Program-made: the position numbers and the translations under genes | Source: Candidatus Sungiibacteriota bacterium | Lineage (GTDB): Bacteria; Patescibacteriota; Minisyncoccia; Sungbacterales; HO2-52-23 | Direction: 5' to 3' | Assembly (NCBI GenBank): GCA_016186095.1 | Contig: JACPMG010000003.1 | Coordinates: forward strand, 1-52,199 | DNA: 52,199 nucleotides | Notes under the pieces: model-generated | Databases searched by the model: none | Seen by the model: the letters and a program-made list of their open reading frames with translations, nothing else | Told to the model about the DNA's origin: nothing | Shown here: positions 4,586-47,081 of the stretch, piece after piece | Layout: the number at the start of each line of letters is the position of its first letter | Position numbering within the stretch: the first letter of the stretch is position 1

Positions 4586-5035
4586 ATGCCCCAAGATTCG
4601 CAAAAAGAGAAGGGAGCGGCGTCAGCCGAGGAAGAGATTCTGGAGCTGGAGCGAAAACTAGAGGAGAAAAAAAGAGAGCTTGCGGAAAGCGGCGCAGCAC
4701 CCGTTGAAGAAAAAGAGGTATTTCGCGAGGTATTGCGGGAACACGTGGAAGAAGCCCGTCCGCAAGCGCCCGGCGAAGGACCGGCAGTTTTGGCTCCTTC
4801 GGTTACTCATGTTTTAGCCGATGACCTCAAGAAGAAGGCCGACGAGGTGAAGAAAAAAGAACTGCGCGAAGAGCAAGTGCGCGAGCTAATTGAATTTGCC
4901 CTGACACGGACTATAAACGACGCGGTAAAAGTAGCGGAGCGCGCAACTCCATGGCTTTTGGATGAACTGCATGATCATCTGGTTGATGATTATTATGAAA
5001 AGCTAGTGCAGTTGAGGAAATTGAAGCAACTTTAA
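4586..5035 (+). CDS. Hypothetical acidic coiled-coil protein
   Basis: 149 aa, Glu/Lys-rich. Its TAA overlaps the ATG of the next gene (TAATG at 5033-5037). Confidence 0.6.
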   Translation: MPQDSQKEKGAASAEEEILELERKLEEKKRELAESGAAPVEEKEVFREVLREHVEEARPQAPGEGPAVLAPSVTHVLADDLKKKADEVKKKELREEQVRELIEFALTRTINDAVKVAERATPWLLDELHDHLVDDYYEKLVQLRKLKQL

Positions 5036-7467
5036 TGTACCTTTTCTATTTATATCTTTTATTGATTTTTGTCATAGTCCTGGCTCTGCTGGCGGTTTTG
5101 ATATTGCGCGGATACGCCCGCCGCGGCCTGATTTCCCGTTCCCTTAATCTGGAGCTTCTTTTGGTAAGGTTTTCCCCTGTAGCACCGTCTCCGCAGGAGC
5201 CGACTATGCAGCAGATCCGGGAGAAGATCGCCCTGATGGAACAATTCTACAGTCACCTGCATTTAATACGCGACAACTGGTGGAGAAAATTGCTTTACGG
5301 CAAGCCGACTTTTTCTTTGGAACTCACTATCCCCTCAATCGGCGAGGAAATTTCATTTTATGTTGCCGTTCCGCGACGGCTCCGTATGGCTGTAGAAAAA
5401 GTTATTCAGGGTATTTTTCCCGATGCGCAGGTTGAAGTTTCGCGCGACTATAATATTTTCAATCCGGAGGGGCAGGCGGTGGGTGCGGGCATAGTTTTAA
5501 AAGAGAATAGATACTATCCCCTGAAAACTTATCAGAAATTAGAGGGTGATCCCATGAAGGAGTTAACCAACGTGTTTACCAAGCTTGCCAAGGAGGGCGA
5601 AGGAGCCGCGTTACAGATTATCGCGCGCCCGGCGCGCAAAAAATGGAGCAGAAAGTTAAAAGATCGCGCCAAAATACTTTTTGGCGGCAAAAAGGCAAAA
5701 GAGAGCGTATTATTGGGAGCCGTGCGCGGAGCAGGGGATTTCACCGGCATGACGCCCGGGGGCCCTGCGCAGGAGAGACCGGAGGAGCTAAAAAAAATAA
5801 CGCCCCTGCAGGAGGAAATCGTGCGGGCGCTGGAGAATAAGGCATCCAAACCTCTTTTTGACGCCAATATACGCATCCTGGCATCAGCAGTAGATGATGC
5901 GCGGGCACGCTCAATCCTGCAGGGATTGACACTCGCTTTTGCTCAGTTTGCCGACCAGAATTTAAACAGTTTTAAAATAATACCCATGGAGGGTAGGTCT
6001 TTAAAAAGTTTTATCTTCAATTTTTCTTTCCGCGGATTTGACGATTACAGAAAAATTATTTTGGGATCGGAGGAGCTGACGTCTATTTTCCATTTCCCCA
6101 ATATCCTTACCGAAACCCCGAAGCTGAAAATTGTGAAAGCGCGCGAAGCGCCCCCGCCGGTAAATGTTCCGCAAGACGGCCTGCTTCTGGGGTATAACGT
6201 ATTTCGCGGAGAAAAAACCGACATTAAGCTGTCGGAAGAGGATCGGCGTAGGCATTTATATATCATCGGGCAGACCGGAACCGGAAAGTCGGTTTTCTTG
6301 GAGAGTATGATTATTCAAGATATACAGGCCGGCAAAGGGGTGTGCGTTATTGACCCGCACGGAGATATGGTGGAGCGTATTTTGGGGTTTGTGCCGCGGC
6401 ATCGAGCGCAGGACGTGGTTTATTTCAACCCCGGAGATGTGGCGCGCCCCATGGGCTTGAACATGCTCGAATACGATCCTAATTTTCCCGAGCAGAAAAC
6501 TTTTATTGTAAACGAACTTCTCTCCATTTTTGACAAACTTTACAATATGTCCATTGCCGGAGGCCCGATGTTTGAGCAGTATTTCCGCAACTCCACGCTT
6601 CTGGTTATGGATGATCCAACGTCGGGCAACACTTTAATCGAAATTGAGCGGGTGCTTACCGATAAGCCTTTTCGTGACCTTAAACTTTCGCGCTCCAACA
6701 ACATCGTGGTGAAAAATTTCTGGACGCAGATTGCGGAAAAAGCCGGAGGAGAAGCATCGCTGAAGGATATGGTGCCTTATATTGCCTCCAAGTTTGATAA
6801 TTTTATTGCGAACGAAATCATGCGTCCCATAATCGCGCAGGAGAAATCCGCTTTTAATTTCCGCGAGGTAATGGATAATCAAAAAATACTTCTGGTCAAT
6901 CTTTCCAAGGGGCGTCTGGGCGATCTGAATTCTTCCCTTATCGGCCTCGTGATCGTGGGCAAGCTCCTGATGGCGGCACTCTCCCGTACCGATCAGCCCG
7001 AGGAGCGCAGAAAAGATTTTTATCTTTATATTGATGAGTTCCAAAACGTTACCACTGATTCTATCGCGACCATCCTCTCGGAGGCGCGAAAATACCGGCT
7101 TGATCTTATCATCACCCATCAATTTATCGGACAGTTGAAAGAAGAAATCAAAAAAGCGGTTTTTGGAAACGTAGGCTCCATGGTTTCTTTCCGGATCGGA
7201 TCGGATGACGGCGAATTTATGGCCAAGCAATATAAACCCGTTTTCTCCGAGCAGGATTTGCTGAATATAGATAACTTCAACTGCTACGTGAAGCTTTTAA
7301 TAAAAGGCCAGACCTCGCCGTCTTTCAGTATGAAGACCTATCCTTCGGGCAAGGGCGAGAAAGAAGTCGCCGAGATGATAAAAGAGATTTCCCGTACCAA
7401 ATACGGCAGGCCGCGAGAAGAAGTGGAGCGGGAGATCATGGAAAAACATCAGAAGCCAAGCTTTTAG
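5035..7467 (+). CDS. VirD4/TraD/TrwB-like type IV coupling-protein-family P-loop ATPase
   Basis: 810 aa with an N-terminal TM segment. Walker A is IIGQTGTGKS and Walker B-like is FYLYIDEFQN, followed by a THQFIGQL block. Confidence 0.75.
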   Translation: MYLFYLYLLLIFVIVLALLAVLILRGYARRGLISRSLNLELLLVRFSPVAPSPQEPTMQQIREKIALMEQFYSHLHLIRDNWWRKLLYGKPTFSLELTIPSIGEEISFYVAVPRRLRMAVEKVIQGIFPDAQVEVSRDYNIFNPEGQAVGAGIVLKENRYYPLKTYQKLEGDPMKELTNVFTKLAKEGEGAALQIIARPARKKWSRKLKDRAKILFGGKKAKESVLLGAVRGAGDFTGMTPGGPAQERPEELKKITPLQEEIVRALENKASKPLFDANIRILASAVDDARARSILQGLTLAFAQFADQNLNSFKIIPMEGRSLKSFIFNFSFRGFDDYRKIILGSEELTSIFHFPNILTETPKLKIVKAREAPPPVNVPQDGLLLGYNVFRGEKTDIKLSEEDRRRHLYIIGQTGTGKSVFLESMIIQDIQAGKGVCVIDPHGDMVERILGFVPRHRAQDVVYFNPGDVARPMGLNMLEYDPNFPEQKTFIVNELLSIFDKLYNMSIAGGPMFEQYFRNSTLLVMDDPTSGNTLIEIERVLTDKPFRDLKLSRSNNIVVKNFWTQIAEKAGGEASLKDMVPYIASKFDNFIANEIMRPIIAQEKSAFNFREVMDNQKILLVNLSKGRLGDLNSSLIGLVIVGKLLMAALSRTDQPEERRKDFYLYIDEFQNVTTDSIATILSEARKYRLDLIITHQFIGQLKEEIKKAVFGNVGSMVSFRIGSDDGEFMAKQYKPVFSEQDLLNIDNFNCYVKLLIKGQTSPSFSMKTYPSGKGEKEVAEMIKEISRTKYGRPREEVEREIMEKHQKPSF

Positions 7468-12744: not shown

Positions 12745-12756
12745 TAGAGAAAGATC

Positions 12757-12804
12757 CACAAAGAAGTCCTTAGATACTTGATTTCCGGTTAATCGATACC
12801 GGAG
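12757..12804. repeat. Copy 1 of a ~47-nt intergenic direct repeat
   Basis: CACAAAGAAGTCCTTAGATACTTGATTTCCGGTTAATCGATACCGGAG. A near-identical copy lies at 13422-13467. Confidence 0.75.
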
Positions 12805-12954
12805 TGGCCAGCAGCCTTGCGACCCCTACCGAGGCAGGTCAGGCGCCACAAAACGTATGGCGTCTAGGCCGCATGTTTTGTATTTAGGCTTGATTTTTTA
12901 ATATCGATATACTACAAATGGAGTAGTTCCACTAACCTGAATGTGGAGGTTTTT

Positions 12955-13362: not shown

Positions 13363-13421
13363 ATAGATTTCTCAATGCGGTCCCTACCGGGACCCCTCAA
13401 TAGGAGAAGGGGAACGACCCC

Positions 13422-13467
13422 CACAGAAGCCCTTAGGTACTTGATTTCTAGTTAATCGATACCGGAG
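13422..13467. repeat. Copy 2 of the ~47-nt intergenic direct repeat
   Basis: CACAGAAGCCCTTAGGTACTTGATTTCTAGTTAATCGATACCGGAG. Confidence 0.75.
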
Positions 13468-13510
13468 AGATCAGTTGCATTGTTTAACAAGTTTTGTTAT
13501 CATAATCTTC

Positions 13511-13729
13511 ATGGACACGCTTACTATTCCTAAAAAATTAGCTCAAAAGGACGATTTGGTAGTGATTCCCCGTAAAGAATACGAGGGACTTTTGGAATTG
13601 AGACGGATGAAAGAATTTATACCGACCCGTGCTCAAAAAAGGGCGATGTTGCGGGCAGAAAGAAATTTCAGCCGCAAAAAAACACTCTCTTATAATGAAC
13701 TCGTCAAAAAGTTGGGATTTACAGGTTGA
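13511..13729 (+). CDS. Putative antitoxin of a RelE/ParE-type toxin-antitoxin pair
   Basis: 72 aa (MDTLTIPKKLAQKDDLVVIPRKEYEGLLEL...). Overlaps the downstream toxin gene by 35 nt. Confidence 0.55.
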   Translation: MDTLTIPKKLAQKDDLVVIPRKEYEGLLELRRMKEFIPTRAQKRAMLRAERNFSRKKTLSYNELVKKLGFTG

Positions 13730-13964
13730 TCCCGATGTTTTCAAGATCTTGCAGAAGATGCCTCGGCATGATGCCGAGGTTATTTTGGAAGTAATCCGGC
13801 TCTTGCCTATCAATCCGCACTTCGGTGATATTCAAAAGATGAAGGGCGAAGATAATACTTGGCGTCGCCGCCTTGGTTCGTATCGGATTTTTTTCAGAAT
13901 CAAAATTGCTGAAAAAGTTGTTCTTGTTTTTCATCTGGAGCGCAGGACCTCCAAAACGTATTAA
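13695..13964 (+). CDS. RelE/ParE-family toxin
   Basis: 89 aa. The C-terminal WRRRLGSYRIFFRIKIAEKVVLVFHLERR matches the RelE/ParE core pattern (W.RRVGDYRIIY...V..I.HR). Confidence 0.65.
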   Translation: MNSSKSWDLQVDPDVFKILQKMPRHDAEVILEVIRLLPINPHFGDIQKMKGEDNTWRRRLGSYRIFFRIKIAEKVVLVFHLERRTSKTY

Positions 13965-15087: not shown

Positions 15088-15125
15088 GAAAAGCCTTCTC
15101 GCTCGCGAGCGAGAAGGCTTTTCTT
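15088..15125 (+). terminator. Rho-independent terminator of csp
   Basis: Perfect palindrome GAAAAGCCTTCTCGCTCG/CGAGCGAGAAGGCTTTTC with a T-tract. Confidence 0.75.
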
Positions 15126-23119: not shown

Positions 23120-24052
23120 ATGGAAGAGAAAAATATAAAAGATCATATACTTCCGGCAAGCATCCTGATTGCTGCCGTCGTTATTGCCGGTGCCTGGGTA
23201 TATACCGCGAGATTAAAGGAAGCTCCGACGCTCCGGCTGCAGAGTGCGTCGGAGATCGGAGTCCCGACTTCGGAGGACGTCGGGAAAAAAGTTCTACCCT
23301 CTCAAGGAGTAGTCTTGCCTATCCGTTGGGGAGATCTTGGCGTCAAAATGGTCAGCGTAGGCCTGATCGATAAAGAGAGATTTGGAACTCTTTATGCGGA
23401 GCGCGGAGGTTTGAGCGCGGAAGAAAGAAAATTTCTTGAGCAGGCCGATAATGGTCAGATAAAGATTACTCCGCATAATTCCGGGATCTGGTTAAATATT
23501 TTTTGGGCCTTGGGATTGGGTACGAAAAATGATATTCTAGATGCAGGACCTATGGTGAGGTATGGCGGCGCGGGCTCGCCCGCCGAAGCCTTGGCGAAGG
23601 CGGGAAATTTTGCTTCAACCGGCGGATGGACTTTATCCAAAGGGGACGCCATGGAGCATTATAGTCGTCATCCTTTGATAGCATTGACGCCGGAGGAGCA
23701 GGAGCTGGTTGAACGCGTGAGTAAAAATATTTATCGTCCCTGCTGTAACAATCCGACCTATTTTCCCGACTGCAATCACGGCATGGCCATGCTCGGCCTA
23801 CTCGAACTTATGGCCTCGCAGGGTGTAAATGAAGAAGAAATGTATAAAGCCGCTTTGCAGGTTAACGCTTACTGGTTCCCGGATACCTATTTGACCATCG
23901 CCCAGTATTTGTCGTCCCAGGGAGTCAGCTGGGAAGAAGTAAATCCCAAAGAAATTTTGGGAGCAAACTATTCCAGCGGCTCCGGGTATCGCAAGATTCT
24001 TGATCAAGTCACCGTACCCGAAAGAAGAGGCGGCGGAAGCTGCGGAGTTTAG
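23120..24052 (+). CDS. Hypothetical membrane-anchored protein with a Cys/His motif
   Basis: 310 aa with CCNNPTYFPDCNHGMAM. Carries two palindromic insertions. Confidence 0.55.
   Translation: MEEKNIKDHILPASILIAAVVIAGAWVYTARLKEAPTLRLQSASEIGVPTSEDVGKKVLPSQGVVLPIRWGDLGVKMVSVGLIDKERFGTLYAERGGLSAEERKFLEQADNGQIKITPHNSGIWLNIFWALGLGTKNDILDAGPMVRYGGAGSPAEALAKAGNFASTGGWTLSKGDAMEHYSRHPLIALTPEEQELVERVSKNIYRPCCNNPTYFPDCNHGMAMLGLLELMASQGVNEEEMYKAALQVNAYWFPDTYLTIAQYLSSQGVSWEEVNPKEILGANYSSGSGYRKILDQVTVPERRGGGSCGV
23223..23285. repeat. 63-nt in-frame double-hairpin element (CTCCGAC/TCCCGAC family)
   Basis: CTCCGACGC (23223-23231)/GCGTCGGAG (23246-23254) and TCCCGAC (23262-23268)/GTCGGGA (23279-23285). Encodes APTLRLQSASEIGVPTSEDVG. 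Confidence 0.75.
23579..23604. repeat. 26-nt palindromic element identical to 9523-9548
   Basis: CCCGCCGAAGCCTTGGCGAAGGCGGG. Read here as PAEALAKAG, but as TRRSLGEGG in dnaX. Confidence 0.8.
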
Positions 24053-24654: not shown

Positions 24655-25350
24655 ATGCATTACGCTTGGCTCATCTGGAGTCTTATGCTTTTGGTTGTTT
24701 GGGCCGCGGTCTATCTTTCTTTAGAAAGTAAAGAAAGTAGAAAGGAGATGCTGGTGGTAAGCCTGTGGACTTCTCTGTTCGGGCTTACAGAGCCCTTATT
24801 CGTGCCGGAATACTGGAGTCCGCCGTCGCTTTTTGATTTGGCGCTAAAGACCGGCTTTGATTTGGAGAGCCTGCTTTTCATTTTTGGCGTTGGCGGTCTT
24901 GCGGTAGTCATCTATGAGAGAATCTTTCGGGTTAAGCATGTAAAAATCAGCGCGGAAGAAAAACACCGGCCGCGTCACAAATATCACCTGCTGGCCATTC
25001 TTTCAGCGCCGATGATCGGTATCCTGTTACTGGTATTTACGGACTTTAACCCTATTTATTCTGTATTCATCGCGCTAATCGGCGGCGGATTGTTTACTTG
25101 GTATTGCCGTCCCGATCTTAAAAAGAAGATGTTAGCAAGCGCATTTATATTTTTGGTACTATATTTTGTTTACTTTCTGACTCTCGTGTTTATGTATCCC
25201 GGATATGTCCAACAAGTCTGGAATCTCTCGGCAATATCAGGAGTTCTTATTTTAGGAATTCCCCTGGAAGAACTTATGTTTGCTTTCGGGATAGGATTTT
25301 TGTGGTCGAGCGCGTATGAGCATATTGGCTGGCGAAAACTCAATTATTAA
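24655..25350 (+). CDS. Lycopene-cyclase-domain-like polytopic membrane protein
   Basis: 231 aa with a PLEE motif (GIPLEELMFAFG). Confidence 0.5.
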   Translation: MHYAWLIWSLMLLVVWAAVYLSLESKESRKEMLVVSLWTSLFGLTEPLFVPEYWSPPSLFDLALKTGFDLESLLFIFGVGGLAVVIYERIFRVKHVKISAEEKHRPRHKYHLLAILSAPMIGILLLVFTDFNPIYSVFIALIGGGLFTWYCRPDLKKKMLASAFIFLVLYFVYFLTLVFMYPGYVQQVWNLSAISGVLILGIPLEELMFAFGIGFLWSSAYEHIGWRKLNY

Positions 25351-25360
25351 AACCTATCGT

Positions 25361-27535
25361 ATGAACCATAAACACAACGCCCAATTTTATACCTGCCCGA
25401 TGCATCCTGAAATAAGACAGGATAAGCCGGGCATGTGTCATGAATGCGGGATGAGTTTGGTGCCTACAGATGCAATCGACGCGCATCATGAACATAAGGC
25501 ATCCACTGACGCACATGATAAGCATGCTGGCCACAGCACGAAAATGTTTTTGAAAAAATTTTGGGTGAGTTCAATCCTCACCATCCCGGTAGTGCTTTAC
25601 GCGGATGTTCTTCAAAAAATCTATGGATGGTCGCCGCCGGACTTTCCCGGATCGGCGTATTTGCCGCTCGTGTTTGGCTCGGTGGTGTTTTTTTACGGCG
25701 GCTGGGTATTTCTGGCAGGAGCATACCGGGAGCTCAAGGCCAGGCTTCCCGGCATGATGACGCTTATCGGTATTGCGATTTTGGCAGCTTACCTCTGGAG
25801 CGTGTACGCGGTATTTGCGGGCGCGGAGGCTTTATTTTGGGAGCTTACGACTTTGATTACCATTATGCTTCTTGGCCATTGGCTTGAGATGCGGGCGGTT
25901 TCAGCCAGCCAAGGAGCGCTCAAAGAACTTTCCAAACTTCTTCCGGATACCGCTGAGGTAATCCGTAACGGCAGAATAGAAACGGTCGCTCTTTCTGAGC
26001 TTAGGGAAAAAGACGTGGTGTTTGTGCGACCGGGAGCTAAAATTCCTGCCGATGGAGTTGTTATGGAAGGTAAAGCGGAAGTGAATGAAGCTATGGTCAC
26101 GGGCGAATCCGCGCCGGTCGCCAAAATGACCAATAGCGCGGTTATCGCAGGCACCATAAATGGTGACGGGGCGCTTAGGATTCGCGTCAGCAGCATCGGC
26201 GAAAAAACATTTCTTGCCGGCGTAATGCGCTTGGTGGCCGAGGCGCAGGCCTCCAAGTCGCGGCTTCAAATTCTTTCAGACCGGGCGGCTTTTTACTTGA
26301 CTATCGTTGCCGTGGCCGGAGGACTCATCACTTTAATAGCTTGGCTCCTGGTCGGTGCTGAAATCGGTTTTGCCGTGGCGCGGCTTGTGGCGGTCCTCGT
26401 CATCGCCTGTCCGCACGCCCTGGGTCTTGCGGTTCCGCTCGTGGCTTCTATTTCAACCACACTTGCGGCTCGTCACGGATTTCTCGTCAAGCAGAGGTTG
26501 GCGCTGGAAGCGGCGCGAAGCACCAATATCGTTCTTTTTGATAAAACCGGAACTCTGACCCGCGGTGAATACGGCGTGACAAATATATGGCCGGTAAAAG
26601 TAGATGAGGAAGAGCTATTTCGGGTGGCCGCGTCAGTTGACATGCATTCCGAACATTTCATTTCCAAGGCCATTGTGAAAAAAGCGGAAGAGGGCGGCGT
26701 TAAAATGGCAGAAGTCAAGGATTTCGCGCGTCTTCCCGGCAAAGGGGTAAGGGGGAGTATAAACGGCGTGGTTATATTTGTCGGCGGGCAGGCGATTTTG
26801 GACGATCTTCAAGTTATGCTGCCCGGGCCGCTTAGAAGCGAGACGGAGGAAGAAAGTAAAAAAGGAAAAACTATTATTTATGTAATTGCGGAGAAAGAAC
26901 TATTGGGTATTTTCGCTCTCGCCGATCTTATAAGAGAGGAGTCGCGCGAAGCAATTCAGGGTTTGAAGGCAATGGGCGTAAAAATTGCGATGGTCACTGG
27001 TGATTCGGAAGGCGTGGCCTCGTGGGTTGCCGGGGAACTGGGCATTGATGAATATTTCGCGAGAGTCCTGCCGCACCAGAAATCGGAAATCGTAAAACGA
27101 TTACAAGAAGGAAAAGCTCCGACGCTCACGGAAGAGAGGTCGGAGTCCCGACCGACTGAAAGTCGCGTCGGGAGAAATAAAGTCGCCATGGTGGGTGATG
27201 GCATTAATGACGCTCCGGCGCTCACCCAAGCAGACCTTGGTATCGCTATAGGCGCGGGCACAAATGTCGCGATTGAATCAGCAGGCATTATTCTTGTCCG
27301 CAATGATCCGCGCGATATTGTGAAAATCATCAAATTATCGCGTCTCACCTATACCAAAATGATTCAAAATCTTTTCTGGGCTACGGGATATAATGTTGTT
27401 GCTCTGCCGCTTGCCGCAGGCGTATTGGTATCAGAAGGAATTCTGCTTCAGCCGGCCCTGGCCGCACTCTTTATGTCTCTTTCCACTATCATTGTCGCAA
27501 TAAACGCGGTGCTTCTCCGAAATAAAGCATTATAG
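25361..27535 (+). CDS. copB: Heavy-metal (copper) translocating P1B-type ATPase, CPH subtype
   Basis: N-terminal YTCPMHPE...CHECGM metal-binding module and a His-rich stretch. TM CPH motif (ACPHAL), DKTGTLT and [14 protein letters not shown]. Confidence 0.9.
   Translation: [724 protein letters not shown]
27117..27173. repeat. 57-nt (19-codon) in-frame double-hairpin element in the ATPase P-domain
   Basis: CTCCGAC (27117-27123)/GTCGGAG (27139-27145) and TCCCGAC (27146-27152)/GTCGGGA (27167-27173). Encodes [19 protein letters not shown] just upstream of [14 protein letters not shown]. Confidence 0.8.
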
Positions 27536-30640: not shown

Positions 30641-30679
30641 GATAACAAAACTCCGGTTCTAAGCCGGAGTTTTGTTATC
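30641..30679. terminator. Bidirectional terminator, perfect 16-bp stem
   Basis: GATAACAAAACTCCGG-TTCTAAG-CCGGAGTTTTGTTATC. Confidence 0.75.
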
Positions 30680-42886: not shown

Positions 42887-43459
42887 ATGCCGAAAAATTC
42901 AAAAAAATTTCCGCCTTCTGCCAAACGCGTCTTCAAGGGCGTACTTTTTGATATATGGCAGTGGAAGCAGAAGATATATAATGGAAGGGTAGAGACGTTT
43001 GAGAGAGTTATACGTTCCGATAGCGTGCAGGTTATTGCCGTGGTCGGCAAAAGAATTATAATTCAGGAACAGCTTCAGCCAAGTTGGCCCAAGGCCATGC
43101 TTACTTTCCCCGGCGGACGCGCGGACGAAGGGGGCAGTATACTTGAGGAAGCAAAACGTGAGCTTTTGGAGGAGACGGGTTATGTTTCGGATGACTGGGC
43201 GCTATGGAAGACCGTCAAGCCCTCCATGACGGTAATTTTTACCATATATATCTTTGTCGCTCGTAATTGTAGAAAAGTTGCCAGGCCCCAGCTTGATGGA
43301 GGCGAGAAAATCAAAAACAAACTTGCATCTTTTGATAAATTCCTCCTGCTTTCCGAAAATCCCAGATTTCGCGAGTCCGAAGTGGCGGCGGAGATGCTCC
43401 GCGCCCGTCTTAATAAACGGAATAAAACTAGGCTCCATAAATTACTTTTTAAAAAATGA
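42887..43459 (+). CDS. NUDIX hydrolase
   Basis: NUDIX box GGRADEGGSILEEAKRELLEETGY. Its TGA overlaps the dnaG ATG. Confidence 0.75.
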   Translation: MPKNSKKFPPSAKRVFKGVLFDIWQWKQKIYNGRVETFERVIRSDSVQVIAVVGKRIIIQEQLQPSWPKAMLTFPGGRADEGGSILEEAKRELLEETGYVSDDWALWKTVKPSMTVIFTIYIFVARNCRKVARPQLDGGEKIKNKLASFDKFLLLSENPRFRESEVAAEMLRARLNKRNKTRLHKLLFKK

Positions 43460-45243
43460 GTTCTCCGATTGATGATATTAAATCCCGCCTTGACTTGGTG
43501 GAGCTGATCCAATCTTACGTTCGTCTCCAGAAAGCAGGGATCAACTACAAGGCCAACTGTCCTTTTCATACGGAAAAAACCCCGTCCTTTTTTGTCTCGC
43601 CCACCCGGCAGATGTGGCATTGTTTTGGATGCGGGAAAGGCGGCGACCATTTTAAGTTTGTCATGGAAATTGAGGGGCATGAGTTTCCCGAGGCCTTGCG
43701 CATGCTTGCCCAACGTGCCGGAGTGGTCTTGAAAAGAGAAGACCCCGCTATTCGTTCCGAGCGTAACCGCCTGTATGATCTTTGCGAGGAGGCGACCAAA
43801 ATTTTTGAAAGGAATTTGGCGCTGACTCCTGCTGTCAAGACGTATCTTAAAAACAGGGGAGTGGTTGGTGAGACCGCGAAAGAATTTCGTATCGGTTTTG
43901 CCCCGCAAAGCTGGGATTTTTTAATGAAGGCGCTTAGCGCCAAAGGTTTTCGCAAAGAAGAAATTGAAAAGTCCGGCCTGGCTATAAAATCAGAAGACGG
44001 AAATTCATGGTATGATCGTTTCCGAGGCAGGATCATGTTTCCGATTGCCGACGGCAACGGCCGCGTAGTTGGTTTTAGCGGGAGAGTATTTGAAGAAGTC
44101 CCGACGCGCTCCGCGGTCGGGACCCCGACTCCCGATAAAAATCGGGACGTCGGGGCAAAGTATGTTAATACTCCGAATACCCTAATTTATGATAAATCTC
44201 ACGTGCTCTATGGTTTTGACAAAGCCAAGCAGGAGATCCGCGGCAAAAATAAAGTGGTGGTGGTGGAAGGCCAGATGGATTGCGTAATGTCGCATCAGGC
44301 CGGAGTGAAAAATACGATTGCGGTATCGGGCACGGCTCTTACCCCTCAGCAGTTGAAGGTCCTGCGCCGGCTCTGCGATACAATCGTAAGCTCTTTTGAT
44401 ACTGATGCTGCCGGAGATACGGCGACTAAGCGCTCTTTGGCGCTAGCCACGGAGTTTGAGTTTGAACGAAAGATTGCCGTGATACCTTCGGGCAAGGATC
44501 CTGCCGATGCGGTTTTAGAAAATCCAAAATCATGGCTTGGTGCGGTGGAGGCGGCCAAACCCGTGGTGGAATTTTATTTTGAAAAATCGTTCCGGGGGCA
44601 TAATCCATCCGGTGCTGACGGCAAAAAAGCCATTTCGGCCACGCTCCTTCCTTTGATTGCGGAGCTGGGGAATGAGATTGAAAAATCCCATTGGGTAAGC
44701 GAGCTTGCGCGCCGCCTCTCGGTGCGCGAAGATTCAGTATGGGCGGAGCTCAAGCGTAAAAATGCCGGAGCCGCGACACCCAAGACCAGCGAGCCGGTGG
44801 AGGCCGGGCGGGTTCCGACCAGGCGCGATCTGCTGGAGGAGCGGATGCTGGCGCTTTTATGTTTTGTGAAGGAGGATTTACGCAAAAAAGAGTTCGCCCA
44901 TCACTACGTTGCTTTCACTTCAGACATAAACCAGCGAATTTTTGAGACACTGCTGGGGGGAAAAGTGACTGTCGCGGCGCCGGAATTGAAAAATGATTTT
45001 GATCTTCTTCGTTTCAAAGGCGAGGTGCTGGTGCAGATGACGCATGATTTGGAGGAGGAGTTTCTTTCCTGTAAACGGGAGCTGGAAAAAGAGTGCATCA
45101 AGGAACGGCTTCTGAAGATCGGCGGGGAAATAGAGAAGAAAGAGAAAGAGGGAGACCGCGTTTTGGTGACCTCTCTCTTGCAGGATTTCCGCGCGCTTTC
45201 TGATAAATTAAAACTGCTATCGCATGATTATGCCCAAAAGTAA
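43456..45243 (+). CDS. dnaG: DNA primase
   Basis: CHC2 zinc finger ([11 protein letters not shown]...CFGCG), a TOPRIM domain ([16 protein letters not shown]). Confidence 0.9.
44098..44155. repeat. About 57-nt in-frame double-hairpin element in the dnaG RNA-polymerase domain
   Basis: GTCCCGAC (44098-44105)/GTCGGGAC (44116-44123). CCCCGAC (44123-44129)/GTCGGGG (44149-44155) encloses TCCCGAT-AAAA-ATCGGGA. Encodes [19 protein letters not shown] just before KYVNTP. Confidence 0.8.
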
Positions 45244-46494: not shown

Positions 46495-46524
46495 GGGCGA
46501 TTACAATAGAAACCAGTTGAAACC

Positions 46525-46665
46525 TCCGGCGTAGCTCAGTGGTAGACCTGCCTGCCGGTAGGCAGGGCGGCTCGCTGTTCCAATCGGAGGATGATCCGCC
46601 TCTGGCGGAAACGAGAAGGTCCCAGGTTCTCAGCCAAAGGCTGATTCGCCTCCGGCGAAGAATCC
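46525..46665 (+). pseudogene. tRNA-Asn-like gene carrying three hairpin insertions and lacking its 3' end
   Basis: After removing 46547-46566, 46580-46609 and 46630-46659, the remaining 55 nt differ at one position from the body of the intact tRNA-Asn at 46700-46771. Confidence 0.6.
46624..46665. repeat. 42-bp direct repeat, left copy
   Basis: AGGTTCTCAGCCAAAGGCTGATTCGCCTCCGGCGAAGAATCC, identical to 47040-47081. Confidence 0.9.
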
Positions 46666-46699
46666 ATAACAATTTTAATTTCATTGTAAAACCATTTTC

Positions 46700-46771
46700 T
46701 CCCCAGTAGCTCAGCGGTAGAGCGGCTCGCTGTTAACGAGAAGGTCCCAGGTTCGAATCCTGGCTGGGGAG
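46700..46771 (+). tRNA. tRNA-Asn (anticodon GUU)
   Basis: Hand fold: acceptor TCCCCAG/CTGGGGA, anticodon loop CTGTTAA, T-loop TTCGAAT. Flanked by a perfect 14-bp leader/trailer inverted repeat. Confidence 0.9.
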
Positions 46772-46798
46772 AAAATGGTTTTACTATTTTTTATACAG

Positions 46799-47041
46799 AT
46801 GTTTTTCATATATGTGTTGCAAAGTATTTCATATGGAACGCGTTATGCCGGTAGTACTGATAATATAGAAAAAAGATTGAGCGAACATAATAAGGGCCGT
46901 TGCCGATATACCAGCGGACGCAAGCCATGGGAGATTGTATATCGGGAAAAATTTGAGTCAAGGGGTGAAGCAATGAAGCGCGAAAAATTTCTAAAATCGG
47001 GACAAGGAAGAAAATGGCTAGACGATAATTTATCCGGTTAG
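46799..47041 (+). CDS. GIY-YIG nuclease family protein (UPF0213-like)
   Basis: MFFIYVLQS..YGTRYAGSTDNIEKRLSEHNKG...KPWEIVYREKFESRGEAMKREKFLKS. About 80 aa from ATG 46799. Confidence 0.8.
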   Translation: MFFIYVLQSISYGTRYAGSTDNIEKRLSEHNKGRCRYTSGRKPWEIVYREKFESRGEAMKREKFLKSGQGRKWLDDNLSG

Positions 47042-47081
47042 GTTCTCAGCCAAAGGCTGATTCGCCTCCGGCGAAGAATCC
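47040..47081. repeat. 42-bp direct repeat, right copy
   Basis: Identical to 46624-46665. Overlaps the GIY-YIG stop codon. Followed by a tRNA-3'-end-like TGCCCGGGGAGG. Confidence 0.9.

Follow-up and report, generated by a model that had tools for sequence, protein, structure and literature searches.

A double-hairpin palindromic element in frame within a P-type ATPase gene of a Sungiibacteriota bacterium belongs to a repeat family of Patescibacteria and Omnitrophota

We analysed a 52,199-nt stretch of DNA from a Candidatus Sungiibacteriota bacterium (contig JACPMG010000003.1, positions 1 to 52,199; hereafter called the window), in which a gene for a heavy-metal, CopB-like P1B P-type ATPase contains a 57-nt double-hairpin palindromic element (27117-27173, forward strand). 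The gene, also on the forward strand, spans positions 25316-27535 as the longest open reading frame (ORF) and codes for 739 aa with the Pfam domains HMBD, E1-E2_ATPase and Hydrolase. An exact-protein lookup of the 739-aa ORF returned no record because the called gene begins later: the gene-caller version (P0001) starts 28 codons downstream, and its residue numbers are those of the ORF minus 28. The best solved relative is the catalytic fragment of A. fulgidus CopB (3SKX). The original prediction had described the genome as looking like those of the CPR (candidate phyla radiation), in agreement with the best ATPase and DnaG homologues, whose source names are Sungiibacteriota, Sungbacteria, Parcubacteria and Patescibacteria.

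The element is made of two abutting hairpin units, at 27117-27145 and 27146-27173 of the forward strand. Their 7-bp outer stems, CTCCGAC-N15-GTCGGAG and TCCCGAC-N14-GTCGGGA, are those originally described, and each hairpin is extended by an inner stem across a single bulged base. In the first unit, a bulged G precedes the inner stem CTC/GAG (CTCCGAC-G-CTC-ACGGAAGA-GAG-GTCGGAG), and in the second the inner stem CGAC/GTCG is followed by a bulged C (TCCCGAC-CGAC-TGAAA-GTCG-C-GTCGGGA). The element has a G+C content of 65%, compared with 47% for the window. Folded as RNA, it has a minimum free energy of -35.3 kcal/mol; a set of 200 dinucleotide shuffles averaged -19.9 +/- 3.2 kcal/mol (z = -4.8), and not one of them was as stable as the element. 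Folding as DNA gave the same z-score of -4.8, and the opposite strand is equally stable. The motif TCCCGAC-N(8-25)-GTCGGGA occurs three times in the window and in none of 100 shuffles. A role as terminators was rejected because no T-run follows the hairpins, and no Rfam family or ribozyme matched the element.

The hairpins thus lie where they had been reported, but the codon-aligned insert is shifted by one base, to 27116-27172 (GCT...GGG, 19 residues), and it does not abut the hinge motif VAMVGDG, from which it is separated by the residues RNK. The encoded peptide is hydrophilic, as had been noted, with a grand average of hydropathy of -1.36 and seven charged residues out of 19. The absence of a stop codon from a segment whose length is a multiple of three is weak evidence by itself, as 52% of random 57-nt segments of the window are stop-free in a given frame. 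We compared the 119 closest ATPase homologues, which have 67-81% identity and for the most part come from sources labelled Patescibacteria or Parcubacteria; 117 of them lack the insert and have no homologous residues at the site. The net insertion relative to these proteins amounts to ~20-21 aa between the P-domain helix ending in '...EIVKRLQ' and the hinge strand 'VAMVGDG'. In the nearest relative (L001) the sequence is contiguous at the codon level (...AAA GGC AAT AAG GTT GCG ATG...). The element is flanked by ...CAAGAAGGA on its 5' side and AGAAATAAAGTCGCC... on its 3' side, and the direct join of the two would correspond to the empty site. Likewise, the alignment with 3SKX splits at the insert into query residues 3-170 and 195-256, so that 24 residues of the window protein stand opposite three of CopB. 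An AlphaFold2 model built from 82 homologues, with a mean predicted local distance difference test score (pLDDT) of 76.7, shows a helix at residues 558-569, a coil at 570-593 and the hinge strand at 594-599 (P0001 numbering). The coil is of low confidence, with pLDDT below 50 at residues 575-590, and the model thus predicts a disordered surface loop at the edge of the P-domain for the insert.

Two homologues, P0029 and P0078, have a different 14-aa insert (FENLKFKIENSRPR and FENWKLEIENSRPW) at exactly the same site. In the corresponding DNA (L002:11723-11767 for P0078 and L003:3545-3589 for P0029), a CCCGCC-CGN-GGCGGG hairpin comes after an A+T-rich stretch of direct repeats. The occurrence of another insert at this position indicates that the site is evidently permissive, as judged from these sequences. 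We also observed that P0029 and P0078 share the local sequence 'IVKxLQEGK' with the window ATPase, yet are more distant from it overall than the insert-free homologues.

The window contains three copies of the element, all in frame and in unrelated genes; they code for 19-21 aa and fold as RNA and DNA with z-scores of -4.2 to -6.7. The second copy, at 23223-23285 of the forward strand (63 nt, z = -4.2), encodes APTLRLQSASEIGVPTSEDVG within an ORF of 310 aa (23120-24052) of the same copper/thiol gene cluster. As originally reported, it has GCTCCGACGCTC, coding for APTL, in common with the ATPase copy, and its greater length stems from a 7-nt duplication of ATCGGAG or from a nested unit. The N-terminal membrane helix of this ORF is followed by a variable linker, which holds the copy; none of the relatives of the 310-aa ORF can be aligned over this region, and hence an empty site is not demonstrable for this copy. 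The third copy, also anticipated, is at 44098-44155 of the forward strand (58 nt, z = -6.5), in frame in dnaG (43456-45243), where it accounts for 19 residues; its second hairpin contains a nested unit, TCCCGAT...ATCGGGA. No further degenerate copies were detected in the window, CCGACG and CGTCGG being at background frequency outside the three loci. A lone CCGAC-ATTAAGCT-GTCGG hairpin at 6215-6238, in a VirD4/TrwB-like ORF (5035-7464), is possibly a solo unit or a chance occurrence.

We scanned one genome per species of the Genome Taxonomy Database with the pattern CCGAC-N8-30-GTCGG-RNY-CCCGAC-N8-30-GTCGGG, which revealed at least 120 loci. Twelve of the matches listed are in genomes with a G+C fraction of 0.66 or more and look like chance. 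Among the 108 listed with a fraction of up to 0.62, 66 are labelled Patescibacteria or CPR and 26 Omnitrophota, including the complete genome of Candidatus Velamenicoccus archaeovorus, while the others have uninformative or automatic labels. The motif is therefore not peculiar to the ATPase gene, as it occurs in three genes of the window and at more than 100 loci in Patescibacteria and Omnitrophota. The same pattern yielded two matches in 2.9 million viral contigs and, in 0.72 Mb of unrelated metagenome contigs, none besides one true copy (L155). Another pattern used on metagenomes, CGTCGGG-N3-12-GTNGCNATGGTNGGNGAYGG, was discarded as unspecific, since ordinary '...ASG(R/K)x-VAMVGDG' codons fit it; only one of the 120 loci that it listed, again L155, holds a true element. 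These loci are the 0.72 Mb of metagenome contigs that served as a negative control for the family pattern. An identical DnaG is found on an independent Logan contig, and the copies of L021 and L155 come from independent assemblies; the element is thus not an assembly artefact.

Statistics on the features of the family were drawn from the 114 copies in listed loci with a G+C fraction of up to 0.62, two of which are copies of the window; these listed matches are also the scope of the figures given below for the family. Several conserved features had not been specified in the search pattern and thus confirm the family independently. A G follows the 5' CCGAC in 105 of the 114 copies, a C precedes the 3' GTCGG in 100 of them, and position -2 of the flanks is a pyrimidine at 98% of the ends. 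The flanks have the consensus A-G-Y-C and most often read AGCC, and the ends of the element are inverted relative to each other (AGYC-CCGACG ... CGTCGG-GRCT). These features indicate that the unit is (AG)YC-CCGAC-G-[variable hairpin]-GTCGG and that the element is an inverted pair of units. The inner loops fold more stably than their shuffles (-3.4 versus -1.2 kcal/mol), and nested or extra units are present in 17 of the 114 copies as well as in the dnaG and 310-aa ORF copies of the window. The family ranges from 42 to 82 nt between the outer stems and comprises subfamilies with conserved loops within and between Omnitrophota genomes, e.g. CCGACGCTCRCTTRCGYTCGGTCGG. Its members occupy genic, gene 3'-end and intergenic positions.

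Copies in long ORFs, taken as those open for 60 or more codons to either side of the element, reside in genes for DNA polymerase I (PolA), GyrB (two genomes), NAD-ligase (LigA), SMC (two genomes), CarB, a zinc alcohol dehydrogenase, a DUF255 protein and a second P-type ATPase. As a side observation, proteins of DNA metabolism make up seven of the 12 identified hosts when the DnaG of the window is counted. The same nucleotides are read as PT...VG in nine long ORFs, as PRR...SG in ten and as PD in two. The use of different frames implies that the conserved object is the DNA rather than the peptide. Thus, the 57 nt of the ATPase gene belong to a repeat family, dispersed across genomes, that is conserved as DNA. 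The length from CCGAC to GTCGG is 2 modulo 3 in 16 of the 21 long-ORF copies, compared with 25 of the 68 non-coding ones (Fisher p = 0.0023); coding copies are selected to be in frame. This bias fits a frame-selected unit that reaches two bases past each stem (53 + 4 = 57).

These data bear on the idea that the insert is an ordinary, lineage-specific loop expansion that arose by local duplication or slippage and in which the hairpins are incidental. The ATPase site is tolerant and harbours the different 14-aa insert of P0029 and P0078, and among Parcubacteria the length of the DnaG site is hypervariable, both as expected from such a process. However, the same nucleotide motif is found in unrelated genes and in non-coding DNA of two phyla, it is read in different frames, and shuffled sequences never reach the observed fold energy. 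A simple loop expansion is already contradicted by these findings, and we regard it as barely conceivable.

Expression might instead eliminate the element, either by its removal as an intron-like RNA or by translational bypassing, such that the ATPase protein would be contiguous. Its RNA hairpins are indeed very stable, and many copies occupy loop positions of tRNA-like sequences, which recalls the non-canonical tRNA introns of archaea. Removal would, however, free the element from constraints on length and frame, yet the copies in ORFs are biased in length as described above and always open. In addition, in silico excision of the listed copies did not repair any split or interrupted ORF, and no Rfam family or ribozyme was matched. 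The split-gene candidates L024, L038 and L061 were rejected, their elements being at gene 3' ends, between two genes. An intein was also rejected, 19 aa being far too short. The tRNA copies described next likewise speak against removal, which we consider highly improbable.

About 30 of the 114 copies are inside partial copies of tRNA genes. The element is mostly in the D-loop, after GTAGC or GCTCAG; some copies interrupt position 27/28, the anticodon loop or the variable region. The element-bearing tRNAs are mostly truncated, and in every inspected case an intact copy of the same tRNA is present tens to a few hundred bases away. The broken tRNA can be a 5' fragment upstream of the intact gene (L108:1744-1897; L009:187-360, reverse strand; L081:5797-6125, reverse strand; and L007:2200-2441) or a near-complete copy downstream of it (L074:4183-4394, L071 and L104); L100 is a further locus with an element-bearing partial tRNA. 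This shows that insertion into a tRNA gene is destructive and is seen only where an intact copy remains, which argues against removal of the element at the RNA level.

Broken tRNA copies also host other hairpin types. In Candidatus Velamenicoccus archaeovorus, a second partial tRNA-Val copy (L081:5935-5995, reverse strand) has in its D-loop another double-hairpin family, with stems based on CCCTCGGGA. In the window, a degenerate tRNA-like copy at 46527-46665 is broken by unrelated small hairpins, CCTGCCTGCCGGTAGGCAGG, CCGCCTCTGGCGG and TCAGCCAAAGGCTGA. An intact tRNA (46700-46771) lies downstream of it, followed by a small GIY-YIG nuclease gene (46775-47038; Pfam E = 4.6e-15), and a perfect 42-nt direct repeat (46624-46665 and 47040-47081) brackets the tRNA and the nuclease gene. 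The region 46520-47081 looks like a mobile tRNA-plus-GIY-YIG cassette inside a tRNA gene. The broken tRNA copy that the nuclease gene adjoins contains these other hairpin types.

We compared the family with known palindromic repeats. Repetitive extragenic palindromic sequences (REPs) and bacterial interspersed mosaic elements (BIMEs) are presumed to be mobile in the form of folded single-stranded DNA and to leave no target duplication, and the REP-associated tyrosine transposase (RAYT) is a Y1 transposase of the IS200/IS605 type. They share with our element hairpin units with a bulged base, a conserved flanking tetranucleotide and inverted pairing. In contrast, the element lacks the GTAG tag, no RAYT or Y1 transposase is encoded in the window, and the three window copies are all intragenic, whereas REPs are mostly extragenic by definition.

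The original prediction had likened the element to the Rickettsia palindromic elements (RPEs). RPE-1 to RPE-8, reportedly described by Ogata et al. in 2000 and 2002, are families from the genus Rickettsia, RPE-1 being about 100-150 nt long, and no transposase is known to be associated with them. Both are palindromic repeats with stable hairpins (ours seen as three copies in 52 kb, all genic, and as genic and intergenic copies across genomes), both are found in frame in conserved protein genes while being absent from orthologues, and both add a hydrophilic stretch to a surface loop (here a predicted one) and also occur in RNA genes and intergenic DNA. In contrast, our element comprises two short units with identical CCGAC/GTCGG stems rather than one long palindrome, and its hosts are Patescibacteria and Omnitrophota. 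The likeness therefore holds for behaviour, i.e. a palindromic element that is in frame and tolerated in loops, but, judged by its length (57 nt, and 57-63 nt in the window, against about 100-150 nt), its two units and its host phyla, the element is not a member of the Rickettsia families.

MITEs (miniature transposable elements with inverted repeats), among them the Neisseria Correia elements and the cyanobacterial Nezha, are similarly small, non-autonomous, inverted-repeat-bearing and able to add residues to proteins. They differ by their size of 70-300 bp, compared with 57-63 nt for the window copies. MITEs also have terminal inverted repeats of 15-30 bp and target duplications; our element has the inverted ends given above, and no pair of filled and empty sites that would define a target duplication was found. 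The Coxiella QMITEs are an example of in-frame bacterial MITEs (PMC5896051).

A search of full-text literature and preprints yielded no published description of such elements in CPR bacteria or Omnitrophota; the nearest report was that of Di Nocera et al. 2013 (PMC3733652), which describes Rickettsia RPEs as in-frame inserts. That study generalises REPs into GTAG-tagged and CGTC-tagged types. Among the CGTC-type units, which include RPE-4, RPE-6 and the Neisseria dRS3, head-to-head dimers with the tags on the outside predominate; those located inside ORFs encode 20-30 aa and are frequent in replication and repair genes, with no linked transposase (PMC3733652). The CGTC families are described there, mostly for alphaproteobacteria, as having 8-9 bp stems that start with A-T pairs, loops of 4-5 nt and a CCA tail (PMC3733652). 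Our family resembles them by its coding size of 19-21 aa, the bias of its hosts towards replication and repair, and the lack of a transposase domain in the window. It may also resemble them by its inverted pair of units, which has GACG...CGTC at its outer ends in about 90% of the listed copies (5'-GACG...CGTC-3' as written on the element), outside as in head-to-head dimers. It is distinguished by a G+C-rich (Y)YCCGAC stem, variable interiors of 8-30 nt that are often hairpins, frequently nested units, the lack of a CCA tail, and its distribution in Patescibacteria and Omnitrophota. The element family is thus a new family of a known kind of palindromic element.

We consider it likely that the 57 nt are a copy of a short, non-coding and non-autonomous REP/RPE-like palindromic repeat that is translated as a tolerated loop. 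The element would have inserted into the ATPase gene and would have survived there in frame, free of stop codons and in a permissive surface loop. It would then be transcribed and translated with the gene, so that ~20 additional residues, hydrophilic and disordered, form a loop that joins the last helix of the P-domain to the hinge strand. By analogy with REPs and IS200/IS605-type tyrosine transposases, CGTC-tagged REP dimers and Rickettsia RPEs, such repeats probably spread by way of folded single-stranded DNA hairpins that are handled in trans by a structure-specific enzyme. Selection would subsequently purge the copies, except for those in frame in tolerant loops and those in dispensable DNA.

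The DnaG loop between GFSGRxF and AKYVNTP, at 44092-44157 in the window, L126:2728-2766 and L127:3637-3711, is hypervariable across Parcubacteria, with lengths of 8 to about 50 aa. The same element is present in this loop in P0127, P0138, P0151 and P0224 (62-70% identity with the DnaG of the window), and in decayed form in P0130 and P0195. In contrast, the closest relatives (74-80% identity) have other inserts, and the carriers are scattered on a rough neighbour-joining tree computed with the site masked. Comparison of three loci at the DNA level showed hairpin 1 to be almost the same in all of them, whereas hairpin 2 has an interior that differs from locus to locus but is always a hairpin. 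Among the ATPases, a CopA-like protein (L021) carries an element of this type too, with both its site and its frame unchanged (...LQNE-VPTPQLLRRGSGSRPAKSRVG-KNIVAMVGDG), and this copy was found again independently as L155. The GyrB elements of two genomes (L011:370-422 and L018:1009-1060) are apparently at the same position, ~aa 610, between the Toprim and C-terminal domains, and the SMC elements of two genomes (L051:2217-2266 and L082:2545-2594) also apparently coincide, at about aa 615-627. The DnaG loop has in addition low-complexity types (ESGIKNQESGKVE, QPEAGSRKPEAAQAE and ALPxExLxKEGxKSSSAKATxD), and that of L127 contains another hairpin (CCCGCCGACGCTAAGGCTTTGGCGGG) between direct repeats, which suggests that several repeat families use this site.

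Several observations weigh against the REP/RPE-like reading. Although the DnaG orthologues share only 62-70% identity, their hairpins have stayed near-perfect, in part because both strands have changed (CCCGAC/GTCGGG to CCCGAT/ATCGGG, as in the nested unit of the window). Scattered DnaG lineages have this type of element at one and the same site, and so do two ATPases with an identity of only 39%. Neither the intact hairpins nor the shared sites would be expected of simple decaying junk; they point to site-selective insertion that recurs, to gene conversion among the copies or to selection acting on the structure. Most of the 8-kb loci listed hold a single copy, compared with three in the 52 kb of the window, and Pfam analysis of 40 ORFs revealed no transposase or RAYT-like/Y1 gene, and hence no candidate for the mobilising enzyme, in the window. 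No pair of filled and empty sites that would demonstrate the exact boundaries, a target duplication or recent mobility was found between near-identical genomes.

The hairpins could be a maintained, functional nucleic-acid structure of which the peptide is a by-product. They could act in the mRNA, by causing the ribosome to pause between domains or in decay or processing, or in the DNA as a site for a recombination or replication protein. The conservation of the stems across two phyla points in this direction, as do the paired changes that keep the DnaG hairpins, the replacement of inner hairpins by other hairpins, the location of many sites at domain boundaries, and the repeated use of one site in scattered DnaG lineages, in ATPases of 39% identity and twice each in GyrB and SMC. 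However, the element is absent from 117 of the 119 close ATPase orthologues and from the closest DnaG relatives, and it is therefore dispensable for these genes. Copies also occur in unrelated genes, at gene 3' ends, in intergenic DNA and in broken tRNAs without a common gene context, and, lacking a T-run, they are not terminators. On balance, a function of this kind appears unlikely.

A possibility that we hold only tentatively is that the double hairpin is the footprint of an undescribed, structure-specific and site-selective system of DNA mobility or recombination common to Patescibacteria and Omnitrophota. Such a system would strike repeatedly at the same loops of the essential genes for DnaG, GyrB, SMC and P-type ATPases. 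It would also target tRNA loops, in which case a partial duplication would be generated or required and the intact tRNA preserved. The hairpins would be kept by re-insertion, gene conversion or selection, and nested units would reflect self-targeting.

The genomes of Patescibacteria (CPR) and Omnitrophota are very small and tightly packed, leaving little room for selfish DNA, and the repeat is written into essential proteins (primase, gyrase, ligase, DNA polymerase I, SMC and a metal pump) and into copies of tRNA genes. These genomes thus appear to be shaped by a mobile or recombinogenic element that has seemingly not been catalogued. The spread over two phyla, the essential host genes, the recurrence of sites and the association with tRNA duplications are its points of interest. 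Gene callers, tRNA finders and protein alignments will encounter 'mystery loops' of 15-25 residues and broken tRNA copies for which there is a simple explanation at the DNA level. The presence or absence of insertions could serve as lineage markers, and the conversion of palindromic DNA into protein sequence can now be studied in a second system that is independent of Rickettsia. Because the family is conserved in two phyla, it may also help to find the enzyme by which CGTC-type repeats are moved.

Other repeats were observed in the window. A 71-nt direct repeat (12749-12819 and 13412-13482, 80% identity, 663 nt apart) lies among small ORFs for which Pfam gave no match, next to a ParE-like toxin gene (13629-13961). 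Two perfect long palindromes are intergenic, one at 15088-15123 (GAAAAGCCTTCTCGCTCGCGAGCGAGAAGGCTTTTC), upstream of typA/bipA, and the other at 30641-30679 (GATAACAAAACTCCGG-TTCTAAG-CCGGAGTTTTGTTATC). Neither is related to the CCGAC family, and both probably represent terminators or operators.

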